Part shown: positions 3,001-62,048 of the stretch, piece after piece
Layout: every line of letters begins with the position of its first letter
Numbering within the stretch: the first letter of the stretch is position 1
IMG/VR virus record: IMGVR_UViG_3300005512_000026
Location: 588 to 64,587 of that record
Length of the DNA stretch: 64,000 nucleotides
DNA from: a virus
Lineage: Duplodnaviria > Caudoviricetes
Direction: 5' to 3' (one strand)
Notes under the pieces: model-generated
Told to the model about the DNA's origin: nothing
Seen by the model: only the letters and a program-made list of their open reading frames with translations
Database searches by the model: none
Made by a program: the position numbers and the translations under genes

Positions 3001-4122
3001 ATCTGGCTAGAATCTAACCTTGCTGCTGACCCGTACAAGACCGGAACTGTTGGTACTGGGCTTGAACTTGTTGGTGGAAGAATCCGCCCACTGTCTTCTT
3101 CTGAACGGCGACGAGACCTGCGTAACAGCATCTCTCAAGACGTATACGGAAAAAACTGGGAAGACTTGAACGGCTTGCAGCGTGACCGCATTAATGCTGG
3201 TGACGTGCCAATGGCTCCTGCCGAGTTCGAGGAATTGCAGCGTTTAAATCAAGCAATACTCGATGAAGGTGTGGCGCGTGGTGATGAAGAAGATATTGTC
3301 ATTGAGAAGTACCACCGCCGTCACCAGAACATTGAGGACGAGTGGAACGACCAACTCAAAGAAGGTATTGATCTACTTACCTCGCACCCTGAAGTAATGG
3401 ACTTGCGTAAGTTCCGTGAGATGTATTTGTCTAACGCAAACGCAATCCGCCGTTCACGGCTTGAAGAGTTGAATGACCCAGAAGGAGAGTTCGCCGTTGC
3501 GATTACCTACTTTGAGGAAACCGCTGAGAAGTTTGGCGAAGAGCGCCCAGAAGACATTGCCTACAACGAATATGTCACCGACATCCTGGCGACTGACGAT
3601 TTCGATAAACCGACCGGCTTTGATTACGAAGCCAGAGACATTGCCGTTACTAACTTCCAAAAGAAGTGGGGCAACGAAGTCTACGCCTATGTTCAAGAAA
3701 GATTTGCTACGGGGCGCAATATCCCTGCGCTTGTCAACGAGTTCTGGCAAGGACGATCAAGATTTGAATACTACTGGCGCGACGTAGACGATGCGGTTCT
3801 CGGCTCGATGGCTAACGCTAACGTGTTAGAGCCAGCATATCGAGAATGGAAAGATGCCAGTGCAAATAGGCGTAAAGAGTTAGAACAAGAGACTCCTTCG
3901 TTGAAAACGTTCCTATCTAAACTGTCTCGTGTACGGGTTGCAATGCGTGAGCAAGACCCACTATTAGACGCATGGTTGTTCCGTTGGGGTTACACCGACA
4001 CTATGCGTCATTCACAGAACGCTGTTGCTCCAGATGGAGTAGACGATGCTCGCGACTTCTGGCGAGACCCACAGGTAAAACCCCTTGAAACATTCGGCAT
4101 TCAAAGTGGCATTGTTATTTGA
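1..4122 (+). CDS. Large virion/ejection (polyvalent-type) protein of phage X, 5'-truncated; ART-like domain near 847-1044 and LPD38-like region in the C-terminal third
   Basis: Frame open from base 1 with no stop before 40; >1360 aa; helical; lies beside scaffold/capsid; YR...SWT...SE motif; LPD38-like 'RSRSAPTAGIGWDIAMGEDFLGRDI'. Confidence 0.6.
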   Translation, partial: NVSTKAGRESLRAVSSTPAAVGKVANFADFGDVSRSVDRLNDTAVRDFIKTKVPERFKGAVTATLSVVNPVRVVDGTRAAAKAMIVNAKGLDQIEKQSELTLSLFFRRLQNSGTGIVDDISETTEKVTGFVPSTGKVEGKAFSVGPNGRILNTGVEAIDSGINGQNWTWNEVFQNLFADINRTSIRKQFGGGNIGIWDEGAGKYVPDESIGNDVPIRAARAGGDVPFERVVDDFANSLSENSSLAHLEYISNNLVPDANTISEWQQSSASLRKHLLSLSDDGETVVAYRSSPNIANQELESWTLDRSRAQMFSNLHSQGQLPIREERILIDDVVAPGAAMDSELIVRRSQPRSGLRVGGTVDPVKAFDANTAELASYVRHFQDSTDSLLHEYMHKSGKVIKTTDKLDDAAARYVPRRPDGLSVYDDVHIANDSRPTGASRTPGKKPRAQQERSLRDDEVRQLVDSGEYSLTTPERTLIEHARDMNKAAWDEQLRKYMQAESKRPDSGILDIGTSQKKAKAAINRLKTGKTKTLQPKTISAIEEHLPETAKILRRASAAGDDIGRTQQILEDATAILKQDVETLGDKMYIPTRGGAVSGRAAANPSVIPPRDRMPAYTGFLFESHDEVKALINRAYPGENLNTIGNFNKVLAETGDLMRVGRTGFDFGFWMIHGLPTLGLAASKTVTNPKLGARMMASWGKAVREAGRAMVDNDRMLLSLADDADIVNEAIGNGLQVSRTSTDVFQAIQNGTILAKAGPVGRAADKLFTKAAQPFESAFVAPGDYIRIQYYKAMRPSAALKGQEGLEELASTLNNMTGALSSSALGINPNLQQLERGILFFSPRYTRASLALLADVFKGGVAGSMARQSMIGMLGLGMLSYLIMVETKKAAGGKQDYHLDPSKSSFMTIDIGGDKIGFGGFWTQFAKLSSKLASLSWDEDAREGFLTDDVARKNPLIRWVRSRSAPTAGIGWDIAMGEDFLGRDISGPADWTQHIGKQSIPIWLESNLAADPYKTGTVGTGLELVGGRIRPLSSSERRRDLRNSISQDVYGKNWEDLNGLQRDRINAGDVPMAPAEFEELQRLNQAILDEGVARGDEEDIVIEKYHRRHQNIEDEWNDQLKEGIDLLTSHPEVMDLRKFREMYLSNANAIRRSRLEELNDPEGEFAVAITYFEETAEKFGEERPEDIAYNEYVTDILATDDFDKPTGFDYEARDIAVTNFQKKWGNEVYAYVQERFATGRNIPALVNEFWQGRSRFEYYWRDVDDAVLGSMANANVLEPAYREWKDASANRRKELEQETPSLKTFLSKLSRVRVAMREQDPLLDAWLFRWGYTDTMRHSQNAVAPDGVDDARDFWRDPQVKPLETFGIQSGIVI

Positions 4123-12871: not shown

Positions 12872-14335
12872 ATGGCATTCAAACATTCCAGTGTAGGAAC
12901 TGAATTAACTCAGGCAGAGTACGAGGCAACAACAGCGCACGTACTAGACTCTCAGGCAACAGGCGATCTCATTTACGCTGACGCAGCGACAACAATGACG
13001 CGCCTCGGAATTGGCTCTGCTGCACAGTATCTATCGGTTACTGGCGGTGTTCCTGCGTGGAAGTCGATTCTCGATGAAGACAACATGGCATCTAATAGTG
13101 CTACTGATGTCGCGTCCCAGCAATCCATCAAGGCATACGTGGACTCCCAGATTGGCTCCAACAACGAGTTGTCTGAAGTTCTTGCCAACGGGAACACCAC
13201 TGGTGCTAACGACATCATCGTTTCATCAGGGCAAGCGATCACCACGAACACCATCAGCGAGACTACTGCTGCATCTGGTGTCACGATTGACTCGGTGGTA
13301 CTCAAAGATGGTGGCTTTACTACCGCTGGTGATTCCTTTATTGGTAACGGCAACGGACTCGTTGTAGGGCACACGGCGCAGGAGTCAATCGGTGGTGCGG
13401 GTGTTTCCGAGTTGCAAGTATTGGGTACTGCTGGCGGGGATGCTGCCATTGGTGTTATTCGGGTATCAAACGATACTGGCGGAGCCTCGATAACCCTCGC
13501 AAAGTCTCGTGGTGCTTCTATTGGAGCGCATACTGTTGTCCAAGATAACGACCCGCTTGGGCGTATCGACTTTGCTGGTGATGATGGTGCTGACTACAAC
13601 GCTGTCGGAGCAGCCATTCACGCAGAGGTAGACGGAACCCCTGGCACAAACGATATGCCGGGCAGGCTGGTGTTCAAAACGACAGCAGACGGCGCTCAAG
13701 CAGCAACAGAAGCCCTCCGTATCGACTCGTCGCAGAACACCATCATCCCAGCGACAAAACGTTTGTATCTCGACGGTGGCTCCAATACCTACCTAGTCGA
13801 ATCAGCCGGAGACGTTATCGACATCGTTGTAGGTGGCGGGGCGACTATGGCGGTCGGTGCTGCCGGTGCGTGGATGGCAAGTGGTCACAACTTCACGATC
13901 CAGTCTGGGGACAAGCTCTACCTCGACGGCGGATCCAACACGTACTTCACTGAGGCAGCAGCCGGCACCGTGGATCTCTACGTTGGCGGATCTCAGGAGT
14001 TCCGGTTTGAATCAGACGGCGATTTCCACGCAGATGGAGACGTTTATGCCTTCTCGACGACCACAAGCTCCGACATTAGGTTGAAGAAAAACGTCGTCCA
14101 GTTTGAAAACGCTCTGGACACGGTGAAAGCTCTCCGTGGTGTCGAGTGGGACTGGATCCGAGAGGAGAAGGGTCATTCTGCCGGCTTGATCGCACAAGAG
14201 GTCGAGGAGGTTATGCCATACCTCGTCAAGACTGGCGGGATTGCCAAGGGCGAACCCATGAAAACGCTGAACTATAACGGTCTGATTGGTCTGATGGTCG
14301 AGGCAATCAAGGAACTTGCTGAGAGGATCAACTAA
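12872..14335 (+). CDS. Tail fibre with C-terminal peptidase S74 intramolecular chaperone (X N-terminus + shared block + Y C-terminus)
   Basis: 'SDIRLKKNV...GLIAQEVEEVMPYLV...NYNGLIGLMVEAIKEL' S74 signature; spans repeat copy 1. Confidence 0.85.
   Translation: MAFKHSSVGTELTQAEYEATTAHVLDSQATGDLIYADAATTMTRLGIGSAAQYLSVTGGVPAWKSILDEDNMASNSATDVASQQSIKAYVDSQIGSNNELSEVLANGNTTGANDIIVSSGQAITTNTISETTAASGVTIDSVVLKDGGFTTAGDSFIGNGNGLVVGHTAQESIGGAGVSELQVLGTAGGDAAIGVIRVSNDTGGASITLAKSRGASIGAHTVVQDNDPLGRIDFAGDDGADYNAVGAAIHAEVDGTPGTNDMPGRLVFKTTADGAQAATEALRIDSSQNTIIPATKRLYLDGGSNTYLVESAGDVIDIVVGGGATMAVGAAGAWMASGHNFTIQSGDKLYLDGGSNTYFTEAAAGTVDLYVGGSQEFRFESDGDFHADGDVYAFSTTTSSDIRLKKNVVQFENALDTVKALRGVEWDWIREEKGHSAGLIAQEVEEVMPYLVKTGGIAKGEPMKTLNYNGLIGLMVEAIKELAERIN
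13108..13734 (+). repeat. Direct repeat copy 1 (627 bp; exact core 13197-13734)
   Basis: Base-by-base match to 55583-56209; 6 mismatches, all in 13171-13196. Confidence 0.95.
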
Positions 14336-17416: not shown

Positions 17417-17770
17417 ATGGTTGAACCGCCAAAACAAACTCTCGTAAATGGCAAGCCTGTCGAGGACGAGGATCCCGATGAAACAACAGATAGCACAGTG
17501 GATCAAGGATCTGGCGATCTTCACGGCGAGGGAGCTACTAACGGCAGCGAGGAACAGGCTGGAACCGGAGCAAGATCCGGTAGTGATTCAGCCGACGAAA
17601 CGCAGACTATCCCCACGTCTAAGCAGGAAATCAAAGAGCGAGCCAAAGGCGTAGTCGAACGACTCAGAAGGGATGGGCCAGAGCCGGTTCGGAGGCAAGC
17701 GAAAGGTCTTGTCGACAAGGCGTTCGATGCTATCGACGCTGGCTTTGATCGCTGGTTCGGCGATAAGTAA
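17417..17770 (+). CDS. Acidic disordered N-terminus plus amphipathic C-terminal helices; first gene of Y TatC cassette
   Basis: ATG 17417 after GAGGT; 117 aa; positional analogue of 58911-59273. Confidence 0.6.
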   Translation: MVEPPKQTLVNGKPVEDEDPDETTDSTVDQGSGDLHGEGATNGSEEQAGTGARSGSDSADETQTIPTSKQEIKERAKGVVERLRRDGPEPVRRQAKGLVDKAFDAIDAGFDRWFGDK

Positions 17771-17880
17771 TGGGGACGATTGCCGGGCTGTTCCTAGCGA
17801 TAGGCGGGGCTGTCTACATCCTCGTCAATATCGTCATGAGTTTCGGTGACGACGCTCGGAGCAAGCTCGGCAAGAAGTAA
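17770..17880 (+). CDS. 36-aa single-TM peptide (MGTIAGLFLAIGGAVYILVNIVMSFGDDARSKLGKK)
   Basis: Hand-translated; TAATG coupling at both ends. Confidence 0.6.
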   Translation: MGTIAGLFLAIGGAVYILVNIVMSFGDDARSKLGKK

Positions 17881-18119
17881 TGGGAACATTCTTCACAATC
17901 TTCTTAGTTTCATTCATCGCTGCCTCGGCAGGATCGAACGCGTTGTTCTGGATCTGGAATGATGCCCACCACACGATCGGCTGGCTCATCTTCACCGGGA
18001 TCTTCGTTGCCGTCGCCTACTTCATGGCGGAGATGAAAACCCGAGGAGTTGCCCGAGTGTGGGAACCTCGCTTCCTAAAAGCAAGAAAAGTTGTAGACTC
18101 ACTGACACGACGGGGATAG
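17880..18119 (+). CDS. 79-aa two-TM protein with basic tail (holin-like topology)
   Basis: Two hydrophobic segments, short loop, K/R-rich C-terminus. Confidence 0.6.
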   Translation: MGTFFTIFLVSFIAASAGSNALFWIWNDAHHTIGWLIFTGIFVAVAYFMAEMKTRGVARVWEPRFLKARKVVDSLTRRG

Positions 18120-18141: not shown

Positions 18142-18309
18142 ATGGACAACACATTAGTAATCATCGGAATCATCGCTTTCGTCGTCGCTCTTGGTGGCGG
18201 TGGCTGGCTCTACCGCCGAGGCTTCCTGAGAGGCAAGGCGAAAGAGAACGAGACTGCTGTCGCTGCTGCCGAGGCAGCCGTGGCACAGATGCGCGAAGAA
18301 TCCGCATAA
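18142..18309 (+). CDS. 55-aa single-TM peptide with post-TM RRGFLR motif
   Basis: AAGGAG RBS; MDNTLVIIGIIAFVVALGGGGWLYRRGFLRGKAKENETAVAAAEAAVAQMREESA; stop abuts TatC start. Confidence 0.65.
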   Translation: MDNTLVIIGIIAFVVALGGGGWLYRRGFLRGKAKENETAVAAAEAAVAQMREESA

Positions 18310-19128
18310 TTGCCGCGCTGGTTCTGGCGCTATTTCAGATGGATCGTTCTACCGTTCCTGACGGCTATGGGGACGGCACTTTACTATAGTGCCGACATAT
18401 TCCAGTTCCTCATTGGCCCGGCAGTGGACGCTCTATCGCCATTTGACGGGAAGCCCACCATCACCACGCCGGGCGGGATGGTTTCACAAACCGTCTGGCT
18501 CGGGATCAAGGCGGGAATCGCTGCGTCGATTCCTTCTGTCTGGATTCGACTTCTCTTAGATCTCAGGCATGAAGGTTGGTTTCCCCGTCATTTTTGGTGG
18601 AGGCTTATCGCTTTCACCGGAGCCGGGGCGCTCAGCGCACTAGCTGGACTGTCATTCGTCTATTACGTGATGATGCCGTTCGGCTTGCGGTTCTTGCTCG
18701 GCTTCGGGAATGAAGTCGTTGTCCCGCTGATCACGCTCCCGTCCTATATAGGACTCGTCACCTCGATGGCGTTGTCGGTGGCCATATTCTTTGAGATCCC
18801 GCTGATAATGTTCATAGTCTCCAACATAGGATTGATCGGCTACCAGCGATTCAGAAGGCTCCGGAAGTTCTGGATCCCCACAGCCCTGATCTTTGGAGCG
18901 ATCCTGTCGCCCGGCACAGATCTCGTCAACGCTGCGCTTCTGATCATCCCGCTCATCCTGCTTTACGAGGTTGGAATGTTCATCGTCTGGATCTCCAAAC
19001 CTGCCGACGGTAACTACCTCTGGATCAAGACAATTTGGGGTGCTGTATTCTGGATAGCAACGCGTCCAGTCAGGGCATACCGGAAAGTCGAGAGAGAGCT
19101 AGTCAGGCATGGGATTATTTCGTGGTAG
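18310..19128 (+). CDS. tatC: TatC-family membrane protein, divergent (phage Y)
   Basis: Six TM segments; 'FVYYVMMPFGLRFLL', 'FEIPL', 'GAILSPGTD...IPLILLYEVG' TatC motifs. Confidence 0.8.
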   Translation: MPRWFWRYFRWIVLPFLTAMGTALYYSADIFQFLIGPAVDALSPFDGKPTITTPGGMVSQTVWLGIKAGIAASIPSVWIRLLLDLRHEGWFPRHFWWRLIAFTGAGALSALAGLSFVYYVMMPFGLRFLLGFGNEVVVPLITLPSYIGLVTSMALSVAIFFEIPLIMFIVSNIGLIGYQRFRRLRKFWIPTALIFGAILSPGTDLVNAALLIIPLILLYEVGMFIVWISKPADGNYLWIKTIWGAVFWIATRPVRAYRKVERELVRHGIISW

Positions 19129-19222
19129 GAAACTCTGGACAATCCCCATCGTCTTAGTCGCTGCTTACTACGCAGTTGACCACTGGCTCGAAATAGTCTA
19201 CTACTCCGGCAAGAAGTCGTGA
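19109..19222 (+). CDS. 37-aa TM peptide (MGLFRGRKLWTIPIVLVAAYYAVDHWLEIVYYSGKKS)
   Basis: Hand-translated; overlaps tatC end and next gene (GTGA). Confidence 0.45.
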   Translation: MGLFRGRKLWTIPIVLVAAYYAVDHWLEIVYYSGKKS

Positions 19223-19320
19223 AACGGGTGTGGTTTCACCTCTGGCCACTCCTCCTCCTAGCAGCAGTTTATGGATCCGCAGCGTACGTCGGCGTGTACG
19301 TCTGCTCATGGTGCGGGTAG
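19219..19320 (+). CDS. 33-aa TM micropeptide ending in CSWC
   Basis: MKRVWFHLWPLLLLAAVYGSAAYVGVYVCSWCG; clear homologue at 60715-60810. Confidence 0.75.
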   Translation: MKRVWFHLWPLLLLAAVYGSAAYVGVYVCSWCG

Positions 19321-19358
19321 ACAAAAAGTTGACAAACGCTGTCCGGCTCCCATAGAAT
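19316..19358 (+). promoter_or_regulatory. Sigma70-type early promoter P1 with tandem GTAGAC/GTTGAC repeat
   Basis: TTGACA(19329)-18 bp-TAGAAT(19353); GGTAGACAAAAAGTTGACAAA. Confidence 0.75.
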
Positions 19359-20009: not shown

Positions 20010-20218
20010 TGATCAACTTTTACGGCAAGGAAATTGAACCGGGCGAAGTAGTCATCGAAGTCCGGTGGCACAAGCCGATCCTCGACGGAGTGGAACAGGA
20101 GCTGGGAGTCTGGAAAAAGGATTTCCGGATCACGTCCCAAGACCTAGCGGATCACGCATCGGAACTGCTAGAGGGGTCTCCGTGGGAGCACTCTGAATAC
20201 CGGATCCAAACTCGGTAG
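20009..20218 (+). CDS. Early hypothetical protein
   Basis: 69 aa, TAATG coupling. Confidence 0.55.
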   Translation: MINFYGKEIEPGEVVIEVRWHKPILDGVEQELGVWKKDFRITSQDLADHASELLEGSPWEHSEYRIQTR

Positions 20219-20256
20219 ACAAAAAGTTGACAAACCCCTGATGCGTCCCATATAAT
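20214..20256 (+). promoter_or_regulatory. Sigma70-type early promoter P2
   Basis: TTGACA(20227)-18 bp-TATAAT(20251); same upstream GGTAGACAAAAAG. Confidence 0.8.
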
Positions 20257-31334: not shown

Positions 31335-31376
31335 GGTTGACAAAAAGTTGACAAGGGCTGAAACGTCCCATATAAT
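31335..31376 (+). promoter_or_regulatory. Sigma70-type promoter P3 heading a second early-type gene island
   Basis: TTGACA(31348)-17 bp-TATAAT(31371); GGTTGACAAAAAGTTGACAA. Confidence 0.8.
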
Positions 31377-53847: not shown

Positions 53848-56825
53848 TGGCGAACCGATCTGGAACCGTCGCATCAACGAATCCTGCGACCCACACGCAA
53901 TACAACGACCTTCGCCTTGACGCTATTGGCCCATTCCTCGATAACCGCGTGTGGAATGACAACTACGAAGCTCAGTTTGGCACCAACGGAGCCGATGGAA
54001 GGATCCTCTCAGACGGAACCGACTTGATCATCGACGCAAAAGGTGGCGGGGATATCAATCTCCAAGTCTCCGGGGTGACGCGTCTGCAAGTGACGTCCAC
54101 CGGATTCAACCTCATCGGCGACCAGCTATTTGACGACAACGAAAAAGCGACTTTCGGAACCACGAACAAGGGCAGCGTCTATCACGACGGTACGGATCTC
54201 CATATAGACCCTGACGAGGTTGGAATCGGGAACGTGAAAGTCGGAGCCAGTGTGGTTATCGACGCTTCTGAATCGCTGTTCTTTGGAGCAGTCGAGGTGA
54301 TTGCCGACGCTGCGGGTACAACGACGCTCCAAAACATCGACGCTCTGGACGCTACGACAGAGGCGACCATTGAGGCAGCGGTAGATACACTCTCGAATCT
54401 TACGTCTGCTACGTCTCTGTCGATCACAGAGAGCCAAATAAGCGATTTAGGGACGACGGTAGCTCTTGTCGCCGATAACCTCTCTGTGTTCGCAGCAACA
54501 ACCTCTGCTCAACTCGCCTCAGTCATATCCGATGAGACGGGATCCGGTGCGCTTGTGTTTGGGTCAGCTCCCACACTCTCCTCACCTGTCTTGAATACAG
54601 GCGTGTCCGGATCTGCCGTCCAAGACGACGACAGCTTTACGACTCCAAGCGCGACGAAGCTCGCCTCATCTGAATCAATCAAGGCATACGTCGACGCTGC
54701 GATCACGGCAGGAGATCTCGACTTGGCTGCGGACACCGGAACGATTGACGTAGATCACGATTCCGAGATCTTGACCATCGCTGGCGGAACCGGGATCGAC
54801 ACATCTGCCTCGCTCACGACGGTCACGATCGCTATTGACGCTACGGTGGCGACGCTAACTGGCGCTCAGACGTTGACGAACAAGACGATCAACTCAGCGT
54901 CGAACACGATTACGATCACTGAATCAAGCATTTCGGATCTTCAAAGCTACCTCTTGCCGGGAACAGTCACCGAGGCTGATATCTCAGATCTCGGCATAAC
55001 GGTTGCAATGGTCGCTGACAACCTCTCGGTATTCGCTGCGACAACCTCGGCGCAGCTTGCGGGAGTAATCTCAGACGAGACAGGCTCGGGCGCACTCGTT
55101 TTCGGAACCTCTCCAACAATCGCTACCCCATCATTTACAGGTAATGTGACGATGGCGACTAGCACCAACTTGCTGTCCGGTGCTGTAACCATTCTCTCAG
55201 ACTCAGCGGGCACGATGACGCTCTCAAACATTGATGCGTTGGATGCCACCACAGAGGCGACGATAGAAGCGTCCATAGACACACTCGCTAATTTGACCTC
55301 TGCGGCTTCTCTGGCGACAGTAGGCACTATTACGGCTGGTGTATGGCAGGGGACGGACGTTGGTGTTGCTCATGGTGGCACAGGTGCAAGTACAGCAAGC
55401 GCAGCACGATCTAATCTCGGCGTTGCGATTGGTTCTGACGTACAGGCGTATGACATTGAACTGGCTGCGGTTGCGGGGCTGACCTCTGCTGCCAACAAGG
55501 TTCCACGGTTCACGGGATCAGGGACAGCCGACCTTTTAGACTTCCTTGATGAAGATGGGATGACATCTAACAGCGCAAACGCTGTCGCGTCCCAGCAATC
55601 CATCAAGGCATACGTGGACTCCCAGATTGGCTCCAACAACGAGTTATCTGAGGTTCTCGGTAACGGGAACTCCACTGGTGCTAACGACATCATCGTTTCA
55701 TCAGGGCAAGCGATCACCACGAACACCATCAGCGAGACTACTGCTGCATCTGGTGTCACGATTGACTCGGTGGTACTCAAAGATGGTGGCTTTACTACCG
55801 CTGGTGATTCCTTTATTGGTAACGGCAACGGACTCGTTGTAGGGCACACGGCGCAGGAGTCAATCGGTGGTGCGGGTGTTTCCGAGTTGCAAGTATTGGG
55901 TACTGCTGGCGGGGATGCTGCCATTGGTGTTATTCGGGTATCAAACGATACTGGCGGAGCCTCGATAACCCTCGCAAAGTCTCGTGGTGCTTCTATTGGA
56001 GCGCATACTGTTGTCCAAGATAACGACCCGCTTGGGCGTATCGACTTTGCTGGTGATGATGGTGCTGACTACAACGCTGTCGGAGCAGCCATTCACGCAG
56101 AGGTAGACGGAACCCCTGGCACAAACGATATGCCGGGCAGGCTGGTGTTCAAAACGACAGCAGACGGCGCTCAAGCAGCAACAGAAGCCCTCCGTATCGA
56201 CTCGTCGCAACTAGTCGGCATCGGTGCTGCGTCTGGTGGCGCAAGGCTGGAAGTCGTAGACTCTGGGCTGGCTTCATCGACCGTTTTCAAAGTCACAGCC
56301 GACGATGGAAACCCATACGGAATAATCGTTGGTAACGACACGTTTAGCACATCAGACGTTGAGGGACTTGCCCTCTATGTAACCAACGCTGGTGAGTCAA
56401 AGATTCGTGCGCTTGGAACTGGCGGTGTACTCCACTTAGGGACACCGGCAGCATCAGATCAGGTAGTGATCGACAACTCAGGGAATATGACAATCAAGGG
56501 TGACATCAACCCAAATGCAGACGGGACTCTTGACCTAGGTACGCAGACAACTGCTCAGTGGGCAAACGTGTGGGCAGACCTTGTAAACGGTTCTGACATC
56601 GCTATGGCGAACGGTGTACGAATGCTGGAGTCAGAGTTGTATGAAGGCTACGGTCGTGGCTGGGCGGTCGGCTACGATGCTGACTGGGAAGACGGCAAGG
56701 CTATCTGGAAGAACCGTGACATGATTGGCAACGGCAAGCCGATGTTTGCTGTCACTGAAGATTTCATCGAGTTCAACGGGAAACGTATAACTAAGGCACA
56801 ATGGGCTGCATTAGCAAACGCATAG
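53847..56825 (+). CDS. Tail fibre (Y N-terminus + shared block + X C-terminus), with internal repeats
   Basis: Two copies each of '[28 protein letters not shown]' and '[15 protein letters not shown]'; spans repeat copy 2. Confidence 0.8.
55583..56209 (+). repeat. Direct repeat copy 2 (627 bp; exact core 55672-56209)
   Basis: Matches 13108-13734 at constant offset 42,475. Confidence 0.95.
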
Positions 56826-59539: not shown

Positions 59540-59662
59540 ATGGATATTCCAATTATGGTCATTGCGGCAGTTTGTGCCACGATCATTGTTGTTGGGTTCG
59601 CTGTTCGGACGTACAACAAGATCAAGAGCAAAGCCGTAGCGGACGCACAGAAAAAGGCATAG
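59540..59662 (+). CDS. 40-aa single-TM peptide (MDIPIMVIAAVCATIIVVGFAVRTYNKIKSKAVADAQKKA)
   Basis: AAGGA RBS; immediately upstream of tatC, as 18142-18309 is in Y. Confidence 0.6.
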   Translation: MDIPIMVIAAVCATIIVVGFAVRTYNKIKSKAVADAQKKA

Positions 59663-59665
59663 CCC

Positions 59666-60718
59666 TTGCACCCTCGTTCATCTTACGAACGGTGGTACAC
59701 AGTCGGGGAACGGTGGCGATGGACGGTAATGCTCTCTATTGCCGCCTTTTTCGCCGCTGCTCTCTCGACGTTTTATTGGCACGAAGAAGTGTTTGCTTTT
59801 CTTCTTGCCCCAGCAGACGGCAAACTATCTCCCTTCGACGGTAAGCCTATCGTCACTGTTCCCACAGGAGGCTTCGGAGCCACCCTGGGAATATCACTAT
59901 CAGCAGGCAAGATAGCTGCTATACCTGTTTTTGCGGTTGGCATTGTTGCCCTTGCAAAACCCCTGATGCCCCACAGTTGGTGGCAGCGCTTCTTAGCCAT
60001 CAATGTGACTGCTGGCTTTACCCTGTTTACTCTTGGTTGCGTGTTCGTTTACTACGTCATGCTTCCGGTGAGTATGAGGTTTCTTCTCTCGTATGCAGAC
60101 GACACCGTTGTATATGTAATAACCCTTGAAGCGTACTTAGAGATGGTGTTCGCCCTGTTCCGGTGGATAGGGCTGATCTTCTTGATTCCGTTGGGAATGA
60201 ACATGCTGGCTCGAACAGGTCAGTTTTCGTATCCAAGAGTCAAAGCGCTCTACAGACTGATCTTTTTTCTGACGTTGTTCTTTTCAGCACTTATCTCCCC
60301 AGGGCTTGACCCTGTGCTTACCGTAATGGTTGCTGTGCCGATGTATTCGCTGTACTTGGTCGGACTCGGTGGCGTGTGGGTCGTTAGGCCAGAGACAGGG
60401 AACTTCTTGTGGTTCTGGACGATGAAGCCTTGGTACGACAGATTGGGAATAACATGGCTGTCGTTGAGGGTTGCGGCTTTGGCGGTCTTGCTGATCGAAG
60501 CTGTTGTGTGGCTAGTAGACGCTGCACTGAGAACTGTTATCGGTCTAATGCGAGCGCTTCGGTCGCTCGTAGCGGCGCTTATTCGGTCTCGCCACGCACT
60601 GTATGCGTCAATCAGGCTGGAACAGCGTCTCTGGCGACTCTGGCTGCGTTTCTGGAGACTACCTGAACGCATTGGCTACTGGCTGGCAGACAAGATTGCT
60701 AATGTATTCTCACGATGA
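59666..60718 (+). CDS. tatC: TatC-family membrane protein, divergent, with long C-terminal extension (phage X)
   Basis: 'LSPFDGKP','FVYYVMLP...RFLL','ALISPGLDP...VPMYSLY'. Confidence 0.8.
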   Translation: MHPRSSYERWYTVGERWRWTVMLSIAAFFAAALSTFYWHEEVFAFLLAPADGKLSPFDGKPIVTVPTGGFGATLGISLSAGKIAAIPVFAVGIVALAKPLMPHSWWQRFLAINVTAGFTLFTLGCVFVYYVMLPVSMRFLLSYADDTVVYVITLEAYLEMVFALFRWIGLIFLIPLGMNMLARTGQFSYPRVKALYRLIFFLTLFFSALISPGLDPVLTVMVAVPMYSLYLVGLGGVWVVRPETGNFLWFWTMKPWYDRLGITWLSLRVAALAVLLIEAVVWLVDAALRTVIGLMRALRSLVAALIRSRHALYASIRLEQRLWRLWLRFWRLPERIGYWLADKIANVFSR

Positions 60719-60810
60719 GATTCCCACGCTGGCTGCTAGACCTGTTGCTGCTGGCGGCAGTGTACGGCATTACTGCGTACTGGGGAGTCTACGTCTGCGG
60801 GTGGTGCTGA
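60715..60810 (+). CDS. 31-aa TM micropeptide ending in CGWC
   Basis: MRFPRWLLDLLLLAAVYGITAYWGVYVCGWC; homologous to 19219-19320. Confidence 0.75.
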   Translation: MRFPRWLLDLLLLAAVYGITAYWGVYVCGWC

Positions 60811-60848
60811 AGCCATGTGGCAGAATGTTCGCAAGAAAGAGGGATTAT

Positions 60849-61088
60849 ATGGGAATGATTAACTGGGCGGGACTTCCGTTCATACTGGGCGGTGAGGCTT
60901 TATCGGCACTGCGCTCGTATAACTTCTGGGCTGCCGTCGCAATGATCGTGGCCATATCTTGGGCGTTCCAAGGGGTCGTGAACAGCGAGGCAATGCTCAA
61001 GTCCACTTATACATGCGAAGACTCCACTGACAAGATGCTTTGGTGGGAAGGCTTCTCAGAAGCCCCAGAATGGTGTTCTAATGACTAA
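60849..61088 (+). CDS. 79-aa membrane protein
   Basis: Hydrophobic segments; last + strand gene before convergent block. Confidence 0.5.
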   Translation: MGMINWAGLPFILGGEALSALRSYNFWAAVAMIVAISWAFQGVVNSEAMLKSTYTCEDSTDKMLWWEGFSEAPEWCSND

Positions 61089-61628
61089 CCAAGAAGACCG
61101 CATCAGACGGGTGGAGGCAAGCCCCTTGACAGATCCTGTAACTCGTATTCCGTCACAGAGTACTGGAAGTCGAATGGAACTCGAAGCCGACGTGTCCGAC
61201 TGGCTGAATCAATCTCCACCAAGTTAACGCAAATAGGGCAAACGTCCGGGCACTGCGGATGGTCTAGTGGTTCAGGAGCTTCTGGCGCGGTGTCGCTATC
61301 GCAGATGCGTAAAGCGACCCCTGTCAGCTGGTCACGGAACCAGAAATGAAGTACAGGCGGCTTTTGATCGGGTAGCACTCCCGGCCACGCGGTGATCTCC
61401 ATATTTTTCTCCCTGCATACAAAAGTAGCCGTTTCGGGAGAGTCGCTCTTAGAGACTCCGTTACCTGATTTGATCAGTACGAAGAATTATGAACGCCCCT
61501 CTATCCGAACACCAATCGTGTTACAGAAAACCCCTCGGAGCGCGGATTGGAGACAACGCTGCTCAACGAGGGGCTTCCAAATATGTACGCCCAGCCTACA
61601 AAGGCGCACACCAACAGAGTACCACGGC

Positions 61629-62048
61629 TTACGTTCCCCACGTAACTGTGATGGCGGTGCGCTCTTCTCCAATTGGACACCGCCACTTCTGTAGGAATAT
61701 CCGGTCTACTTGATTATCGTCTTGCCACACAGAAGCCTCAGAGAGACCGTCCATAATTGGCTTTAGTAGATTGTCACTGTCCGGTTTGCTGACGTGCGCT
61801 GTGGTGCTGTTGGCTACCTTCTTTGGCTTGCCTTTCGCCCACGGCAGATACACGTCAACCATGAGTCCTACTGGCACGTCCTCTGGGGCAGTCTCTACTT
61901 GGTGTTCACGCATCGCTAAGAAGGCTTGTTCTTTTACGACTGCCTTCCAGCGAGCGACGTTCGGAGTATTGTGCATTCCCCGTCCGCCCTTGTTGATGCG
62001 TGGTCTACCGGCTGCTGCCTTGCCCTCTATGGTGAACTCCAGTTTCAT
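61629..62048 (-). CDS. rusA: RusA-family Holliday junction resolvase
   Basis: 'KPDSDNLLKPIMDGL','WQDDNQV'. Confidence 0.85.
   Translation of the reverse strand: MKLEFTIEGKAAAGRPRINKGGRGMHNTPNVARWKAVVKEQAFLAMREHQVETAPEDVPVGLMVDVYLPWAKGKPKKVANSTTAHVSKPDSDNLLKPIMDGLSEASVWQDDNQVDRIFLQKWRCPIGEERTAITVTWGT

Follow-up and report, generated by a model that had tools for sequence, protein, structure and literature searches.

A putative new family of CxxC-ended transmembrane micropeptides encoded beside TatC in tailed phages

The locus described here raises the question whether an open reading frame of about 30 codons beside a phage-borne TatC gene encodes a protein and, if so, what such a peptide could contribute to the membrane machine next to it. 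The window, by which we mean the whole stretch of 64,000 nucleotides that was analysed, covers almost the entire IMG/VR virus record from which it comes (64,587 nt) and holds two phages, termed X and Y. The only blastn match between its two halves is a tail-fibre segment of 665 bp (13070-13734 and 55545-56209) that is 97% identical. This is consistent with X and Y being related phages joined at the repeat by recombination or by assembly, and because of the shared tail-fibre segment they probably have the same host. A sequence-only reading of this DNA had proposed an unannotated, conserved transmembrane (TM) micropeptide ending in a CxWC motif, encoded after TatC in both phages. Both reading frames are present on the + strand, each with a single TM segment and the terminal CxWC, and the two peptides, pepD_X and pepD_Y, are homologous. 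The features of the two cassettes are as follows.

17417-18119, +, 5' part of the Y cassette: 117-aa charged protein, 36-aa TM ORF (17770-17880) and 79-aa two-TM ORF (17880-18119)
18142-18309, +, pepA_Y, 55-aa TM protein directly upstream of TatC_Y
18310-19128, +, TatC_Y, TatC homologue of phage Y, 272 aa (Pfam PF00902, E 1.4e-26)
19109-19222, +, pepB_Y, 37-aa TM ORF between TatC_Y and pepD_Y, overlapping the TatC_Y end by 20 nt
19219-19320, +, pepD_Y, 33 aa, single-TM, GTG start, ends CSWCG (family HMM 59.9 bits)
19320-19358, +, repeated 18-mer and sigma-70-type promoter, starting at the last base of the pepD_Y stop codon
58911-59440, +, 5' part of the X cassette: 120-aa charged protein and 55-aa TM protein
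59540-59662, +, pepA_X, 40-aa TM protein directly upstream of TatC_X
59666-60718, +, TatC_X, TatC homologue of phage X, 350 aa with a long C-terminal extension (PF00902, E 1.8e-30)
60715-60810, +, pepD_X, 31 aa, single-TM, ATG start, ends CGWC (family HMM 63.4 bits)
60849-61088, +, membrane protein 3' of pepD_X, 79 aa, two C-terminal cysteines
61629-62048, -, RusA Holliday-junction resolvase (PF05866, 2e-19), convergent with the X cassette

Both cassettes lie 3' of tail-fibre genes, and each is composed of a charged protein of about 120 residues, small TM proteins, TatC and further micro-TM ORFs. The pepD start codons overlap the upstream stop codons by 4 nt: read from the sequence, the GTG of pepD_Y forms a GTGA overlap with the stop (TGA) of pepB_Y, and the ATG of pepD_X an ATGA overlap with the TatC_X stop. 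The placement after TatC therefore applies directly to X, whereas pepD_Y is reached from TatC_Y only past one ORF, since pepB_Y intervenes. The gene upstream of TatC_Y, pepA_Y, has the position of tatA in a tat operon, and the Pfam search gave no PF02416 (TatA) match for it at E values up to 1. TM ORFs of about 40 aa upstream of TatC form a blastp cluster in 14 related loci, seven with pepD and seven without; pepA_X and pepA_Y both fall outside this cluster. The 5' part of the Y cassette shows a weak match to the holin family PF07332 (E 0.18). For the 79-aa protein at 60849-61088 the Pfam and PHROG searches returned no family match, and the stretch of about 400 nt between the X cassette and RusA (61228-61628) holds no convincing ORF. 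By eye, ORFs like pepB_Y start inside the TatC stop region in the related loci L022, L024, L027 and L029-31. Numerous phage TatCs terminate in Trp-Trp-stop, and in five lineages the next micro-ORF starts 9 nt before the TatC ORF end (L022 at 3771, L024 at 1320, L027 at 3287, L029-31 at 3756 and L023 at 3756); the start inside the Trp-Trp-stop stretch gives these ORFs a conserved Met-Val-Val beginning. This arrangement looks like a fixed translational-coupling junction.

In phage Y, pepD is the last gene of the late operon and is followed by a promoter (TTGACA, 18 nt, TAGAAT) that agrees with the sigma-70 consensus at 11 of 12 positions. The 18-mer GACAAAAAGTTGACAAAC, which carries the consensus -35 box, occurs at 19320-19337, 20218-20235 and 31339-31356, with 0.07 matches expected by chance. 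Its first and second copies each precede a near-consensus -10 box, TAGAAT and TATAAT, respectively, and these elements are probably early or middle promoters of phage Y.

pepD is a genuine protein-coding gene. Between pepD_X and pepD_Y the synonymous sites are saturated (pS 0.94, pN 0.32; 12, 9 and 23 differences at the three codon positions) and still 20-21 of 31 aligned residues (68%) are identical, while blastn of the two cassette loci against each other detects no DNA similarity. Close pairs point in the same direction, with five synonymous and no nonsynonymous changes between the pepD genes of L010 and L009, five and two between pepD_X and L010, and five and four between L130 and L131. 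Pooled, 15 of 21 changes are synonymous against 24% expected (p 6e-6), and pN/pS lies between 0.13 and 0.67 in ten further pairs. The sequence-only reading had allowed for homologous loci that conserve the DNA without synonymous-site bias, and this is clearly not what is found. An Rfam family or tRNA is absent from the window and from 9-12 related loci. That the stretch acts as conserved regulatory DNA or RNA closing the operon, or that the ORF arose by chance, could be argued from the length of the ORF below the usual size cut-offs, from the repeated 18-mer and promoter directly after the stop codon in Y, and from the unusual likeness of X and L010 DNA across pepD, but this reading is refuted by the substitution pattern and by 15 lineages that are conserved solely at the protein level.

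The relatives of pepD were collected with searches seeded with TatC and not with the peptide, which recovered 34 metagenome loci and 15 IMG/VR loci; members were found in these loci by a regular expression and then by a peptide HMM. The final alignment contains 16 sequences of 28-34 residues from 15 lineages, TatC-linked in all known contexts. The HMM separates them well from other six-frame segments: in the first 715 kb of loci members reach 46 bits or more, against a maximum of 8.9 for other segments, and in the IMG/VR loci they range from 22.8 to 63 bits, against a maximum of 8.2. Together with the undetectable DNA similarity in blastn, this separation excludes chance similarity. Homologues without the cysteines were not encountered, and small TM ORFs that take its place (for example in L011/L019, L013 and L010) reach at most 8.2 bits.

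The description of the peptide as unannotated is borne out. The exact pepD_X and pepD_Y peptides are absent from a collection of 15 billion proteins and pepD is therefore effectively unannotated; among 1.84 billion representative proteins a profile search returned just five clusters of relatives. Three of these clusters were new additions, and each lies beside TatC or a TatC 3' end (P0003 in L135, P0004 in L121 and P0005 in L122). Pfam, NCBIfam and PHROG hold no family model for any of the 16 members (E up to 1 in Pfam and PHROG), and hits in the ESM Atlas stayed below threshold (best 0.82). Judged by these searches, pepD is the founder of a previously undescribed protein family.

Across the 16 sequences C28 and C31 (X numbering) alone are invariant, and the cysteine pair is thus likely to be the functional core. 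The CxxC motif always ends 0-2 residues before the C-terminus. V/I16, Y/F17, G24 and an aromatic residue at position 26 are frequent, whereas position 30 is mostly W and may also be G, T, R, D or Q. Most N-termini carry 1-3 basic residues, a proline (P9) often stands at the start of the helix, and the hydrophobic helix is about 20 residues long. Conservation follows a 100-degree periodicity that 3.4% of shuffles reach, and the conserved face holds both cysteines: L13, V16/Y17, G24, C28 and C31 come to lie on one helical face. Since the conserved residues share a face, pepD most likely packs against another helix. In L121 (105-335) a CxxC peptide is fused in frame behind another cassette peptide consisting of an Arg/Trp-rich helix and a TM segment. 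The contig has 567 nt and 1.9x coverage, and the fusion could be real or a sequencing error. The AF2 model of the fusion from a single sequence (pLDDT 77, pTM 0.41) consists of two helices and a loop; because its helix runs to the residue before the C-terminus, the pepD part is predicted to be helical through the cysteine pair.

In every known context pepD and the 3' end of a phage-type TatC are less than 1 kb apart (about 0.9 kb at most). There is an overlap with the TatC stop in X, L023/26, L122 and L131; in Y, L022, L024, L032, L136 and L139 one or two further micro-TM ORFs precede pepD. The arrangement in L135 is different: there pepD (2349-2438, -) lies opposite to the TatC strand, 92 nt downstream, as the final gene of a convergent operon of small soluble proteins. 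Co-expression with TatC is therefore not obligatory. Upstream of pepD in L135 we noted a Cys/His-rich ORF that is HNH-like by eye. A DNA motif scan that was blind to TatC and covered 2.9 million viral contigs of IMG/VR gave nine hits, of which six are true members, all TatC-adjacent. The other three proved to be out-of-frame, low-complexity artefacts that are not TM segments. TM ORFs ending in CxxC were not found around 80 cellular tatC genes, for which the searched neighbourhoods add up to about 0.5 Mb.

A profile of 19 phage TatCs matches the Aquifex TatC 4B4A with an E value of 5e-34 over the whole core (profile positions 14-240 of 287, residues 8-232 of the 249-residue chain). A GTDB genome scan with a TatC profile retrieved cellular TatCs alone, at 24-34% identity, and no prophage copy, and gave no pointer to a host. 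A sample of 201 Chloroflexota genomes (best score 147 bits) did no better than a Hyphomonas genome (134 bits). Scanning viral sequence again, this time for the L022-type TatC clade, brought in no further lineage. Just 3' of the cassette, in loci that have otherwise diverged, we observed blocks that are 79-87% identical and have no convincing ORF and no Rfam or tRNA match (L030 4047-4114 and L027 3421-3491; L030 4312-4380 and L024 2042-2109).

While the linkage is strict from the side of pepD, it is not so from the side of TatC. pepD is present in 14 of 28 evaluable TatC lineages and absent from 14, where absence calls rest on 0.4-3 kb of flank in some loci and L034 and L035/36 are short. The expectation of a conserved ORF at homologous loci thus holds for half of them, and since the other half are without it pepD is accessory and not a core subunit. 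On the TatC tree its state changes at least six times on well-supported branches and eight times on the best tree, and close relatives differ in its presence (L010 and L007; L022/L024 and L027). The sequence-only reading had regarded pepD as the best-conserved part of the cassette. This is true for the comparison of X and Y, with 21 of 31 identical residues in the peptide against 17 of 31 in the best 31-residue window of TatC and 31% identity of the TatCs overall, but not for L022 and L023, whose TatCs are 79% and whose peptides are 31% identical. As far as these comparisons show, there is no co-evolution of pepD with TatC. An island of 182 bp that comprises the TatC tail and pepD is 92.9% identical in DNA between X (60641-60822) and L010 (3778-3959), compared with 68% for the TatC body, which points to recent transfer of this module from phage to phage. 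The presence of pepD shows no correlation with any gene upstream in the cassette, and the families of the 120-aa charged and the 55-aa TM protein of X are equally frequent in lineages with and without it. Fusions of TatC and pepD were not observed among 54 phage-type TatC clusters. As 32 of the 54 phage-type TatCs are free of cysteine, a disulfide between pepD and TatC is unlikely to be a general mechanism. Among the roles that the sequence-only reading had considered for the terminal CxxC (a redox or metal switch, or a crosslinking site), crosslinking to TatC is thus an unlikely version.

The lineages without pepD often carry another gene. In eight lineages the 3' end of TatC has a DedA/VTT-family gene (PF09335) at a distance of no more than about 1 kb, never alongside pepD.

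L002 5396-5845, -, DedA/VTT-family gene
L013 2585-3025, +, DedA/VTT-family gene
L016, L017, L027/28, L128/129, L132 and L134, homologues of these genes

The VTT gene is thus found in none of 14 pepD carriers and in eight of 14 non-carriers (Fisher p 0.002). Among near-complete records it is absent throughout from all four pepD carriers and present in the single pepD-free one. When relatedness is allowed for, about four independent contrasts are left, all opposite in direction (sign-test p ~0.125), and the mutual exclusivity of pepD and VTT is suggestive. It would not merely reflect rivalry for one insertion slot, since the VTT gene of L007 is located in a convergent operon beyond RusA. The pattern suggests a complementation experiment.

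Several classes of small membrane protein invite comparison. The micro-subunits KdpF, CydX and AcrZ are, like pepD, about 30 residues long, contain one TM helix and are often missed by annotation, and their genes adjoin that of a polytopic membrane protein and are often translationally coupled to it. In all known contexts pepD likewise lies less than 1 kb from TatC, L135 being exceptional in that pepD is on the opposite strand there. However, it is unrelated to them in sequence, its invariant C-terminal CxxC has no counterpart there, and it is found in only half of its partner's lineages and does not co-evolve with it; binding to TatC would be hypothetical. TatA, TatB and TatE (PF02416) are also small single-TM proteins from a tat-like gene cluster. 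In contrast to them pepD has neither a hinge glycine nor an amphipathic helix and ends four residues past the TM segment. There is no room for such a helix, because the peptide ends 0-2 residues after a CxxC that abuts the hydrophobic segment. Its predicted orientation (N-in) is the opposite one, and neither the window peptides nor any of the 16 family members matches PF02416 at E values up to 1.

Holins, pinholins and antiholins (lambda S105/S107, phage 21 S68, T4 T/RI) share with pepD the small size, the membrane location the place at the late-operon end and a helix face made up of small residues, a sign of helix packing. Thiols or disulfides matter in some lysis systems, as in the periplasmic disulfide of the T4 holin, the disulfide caging of P1 Lyz and the Rz-Rz1 links. 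Unlike holins, pepD has a single TM helix in about 30 residues and ends in CxxC instead of a charged cytoplasmic tail. It also lacks a holin match in Pfam and PHROG, is optional in its cassette and has no recognisable endolysin partner. The amurins (phiX174 E, phage M LysM) and type I toxins (Hok/Gef, TisB) are tiny membrane peptides as well. They kill or lyse without an endolysin, and Hok has conserved periplasmic cysteines. However, these peptides come from ssDNA or ssRNA phages or toxin-antitoxin loci and act alone, whereas pepD occurs only beside TatC in tailed phages; this strict linkage argues against an autonomous toxin. DsbB and VKOR offer an analogy of placement, with a CxxC at the TM exit on the oxidising side, near aromatic residues, but both are enzymes of four helices that possess a quinone site as well as a second cysteine pair. 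pepD has the CxxC motif of an oxidoreductase, while a thioredoxin fold or a four-helix core is absent (28-34 residues, one predicted helix). Judged on sequence, pepD fails the testable defining features of TatA/B/E, of holins and of thiol oxidoreductases.

The six major endolysin Pfam families PF00959, PF01510, PF01464, PF13539, PF01520 and PF01183 have no match in five TatC-phage records (G000, which is the window, and G203, G204, G205 and G206), each at least 97% complete, and no lysin domain above threshold was found in 20 window ORFs. A TatC-centred cassette appears to hold the lysis-gene position in marine phages without a recognisable endolysin. A lysis role for the whole cassette is what we infer from this position and the lack of an endolysin.

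We tentatively favour, with a probability approaching even, the reading that pepD is an accessory membrane module that tunes this TatC-centred, endolysin-free cassette via its packed helix face and an outward-facing cysteine pair. Topology, oligomerisation and disulfide chemistry are, like the lysis role, what we infer. Following the positive-inside rule, the basic N-termini would give an N-in/C-out topology and place the thiols at the outer, periplasm-facing surface of the membrane. A DsbA-type oxidising compartment in the host is assumed here. The helix may pack against further copies of pepD or against another small protein of the cassette, and through disulfide or thiol-dependent links the two thiols might lock or gate the assembly. 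As an optional and often exchanged module pepD could then tune the timing or the efficiency of membrane breaching. Several observations stand against this tuner. The peptide does not co-evolve with TatC, in L135 it is encoded on the opposite strand in a convergent operon, and cassettes without it presumably still work. The residue between the cysteines varies, so that the signature of a tight redox motif is missing. If the L121 fusion is real, a hairpin in it would place the CxxC on the side of the Arg-rich N-terminus, contrary to the predicted topology.

Some of these observations fit a peptide directed against the host, which we consider somewhat unlikely. Here pepD would bind or poison a component of the host inner membrane, for example a lipid-carrier-cycle enzyme or flippase in the manner of amurins, the quinone/Dsb redox chain, or the proton gradient in the manner of Hok- or TisB-type toxins, and would be encoded near TatC as both serve killing or lysis, without contact between the two. 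The discordance between peptide and TatC similarity (68% against 31% for X and Y, 31% against 79% for L022 and L023) agrees with this, all the more as X and Y probably have the same host and their peptides are the similar ones; the similarity of X and Y could, however, equally stem from old recombination between co-infecting phages. Frequent gain and loss, possible transcription from another operon (L135), mutual exclusivity with the DedA/VTT-family gene and a life without recognisable endolysins, like that of amurin-using phages, would also be in line with a host target. A self-sufficient toxin should nevertheless not be bound to one neighbour, and all genuine members are TatC-adjacent, including those from the TatC-blind scan.

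For pepD as a stoichiometric partner of TatC itself speak this strict linkage, the start codons overlapping the TatC stop in X, L023, L122 and L131, and the X/L010 island across the TatC C-terminal tail and pepD. The peptide would sit in a helix-binding site of TatC (at TM5-TM6, where TatA/TatB bind, or in the groove for signal peptides) as a built-in ligand of a TatC that has given up its normal cargo, and its basic N-terminus and hydrophobic helix are loosely signal-anchor-like. We regard this as decidedly unlikely. There is no co-evolution, half of the lineages including close relatives of carriers do without pepD, fusions are missing among the 54 phage-type TatC clusters, and most phage-type TatCs have no cysteine to pair with. 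In addition, features of the TatC tail do not, by eye, set the carriers apart.

It is very improbable that pepD is a thiol sensor in its own right, in which two or more peptides bind a metal via four thiolates, or in which electron exchange between a membrane-edge CxxC and quinone reports the energy state of the host to the cassette. In DsbB and VKOR a CxxC located where a TM helix reaches the outer membrane face exchanges electrons with quinone, and by this analogy the invariant CxxC at the helix end and the conserved aromatics (Y17, the aromatic residue at 26, usually W30) might be read in that way. However, a second cysteine pair, His or Asp ligands and a conserved residue between the cysteines are all missing, and a peptide of 30 residues has no quinone pocket of its own.

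The literature that we searched holds little on such systems. A TatC gene is listed for a circular marine virus, unremarked, in a figure legend (PMC10564846). A 2026 Tat review does not mention phage TatC, and our searches for phage TatC, for lysis cassettes with TatC and for holins with a CxxC gave nothing relevant beyond this annotation. One apparent match turned out to be the letters TATC inside primer sequences.

On present data pepD is a micro-protein beside a membrane machine, the family appearing to be new and the cassette itself barely described. It provides a defined part, tractable by mutagenesis, of a cassette that has hitherto been annotated merely in passing, and its small size and two invariant cysteines make redox control of the cassette quickly checkable. 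A more far-reaching scenario is one that we hold to be quite improbable: endolysin-free marine tailed phages would lyse their hosts via a repurposed TatC, VTT and pepD would be interchangeable accessories for one step of this pathway, and pepD would be a minimal thiol-gated trigger at the outer membrane face, coupling rupture of the membrane to the redox or energy state of the host. If true, pepD would represent a new class of lysis regulator, and the Tat receptor would have acquired a new use. More generally, conserved genes of about 30 codons are still overlooked in viral metagenomes, and if the cassette really is an endolysin-free lysis system, pepD would be a handle on the way in which abundant marine phages exit their hosts.
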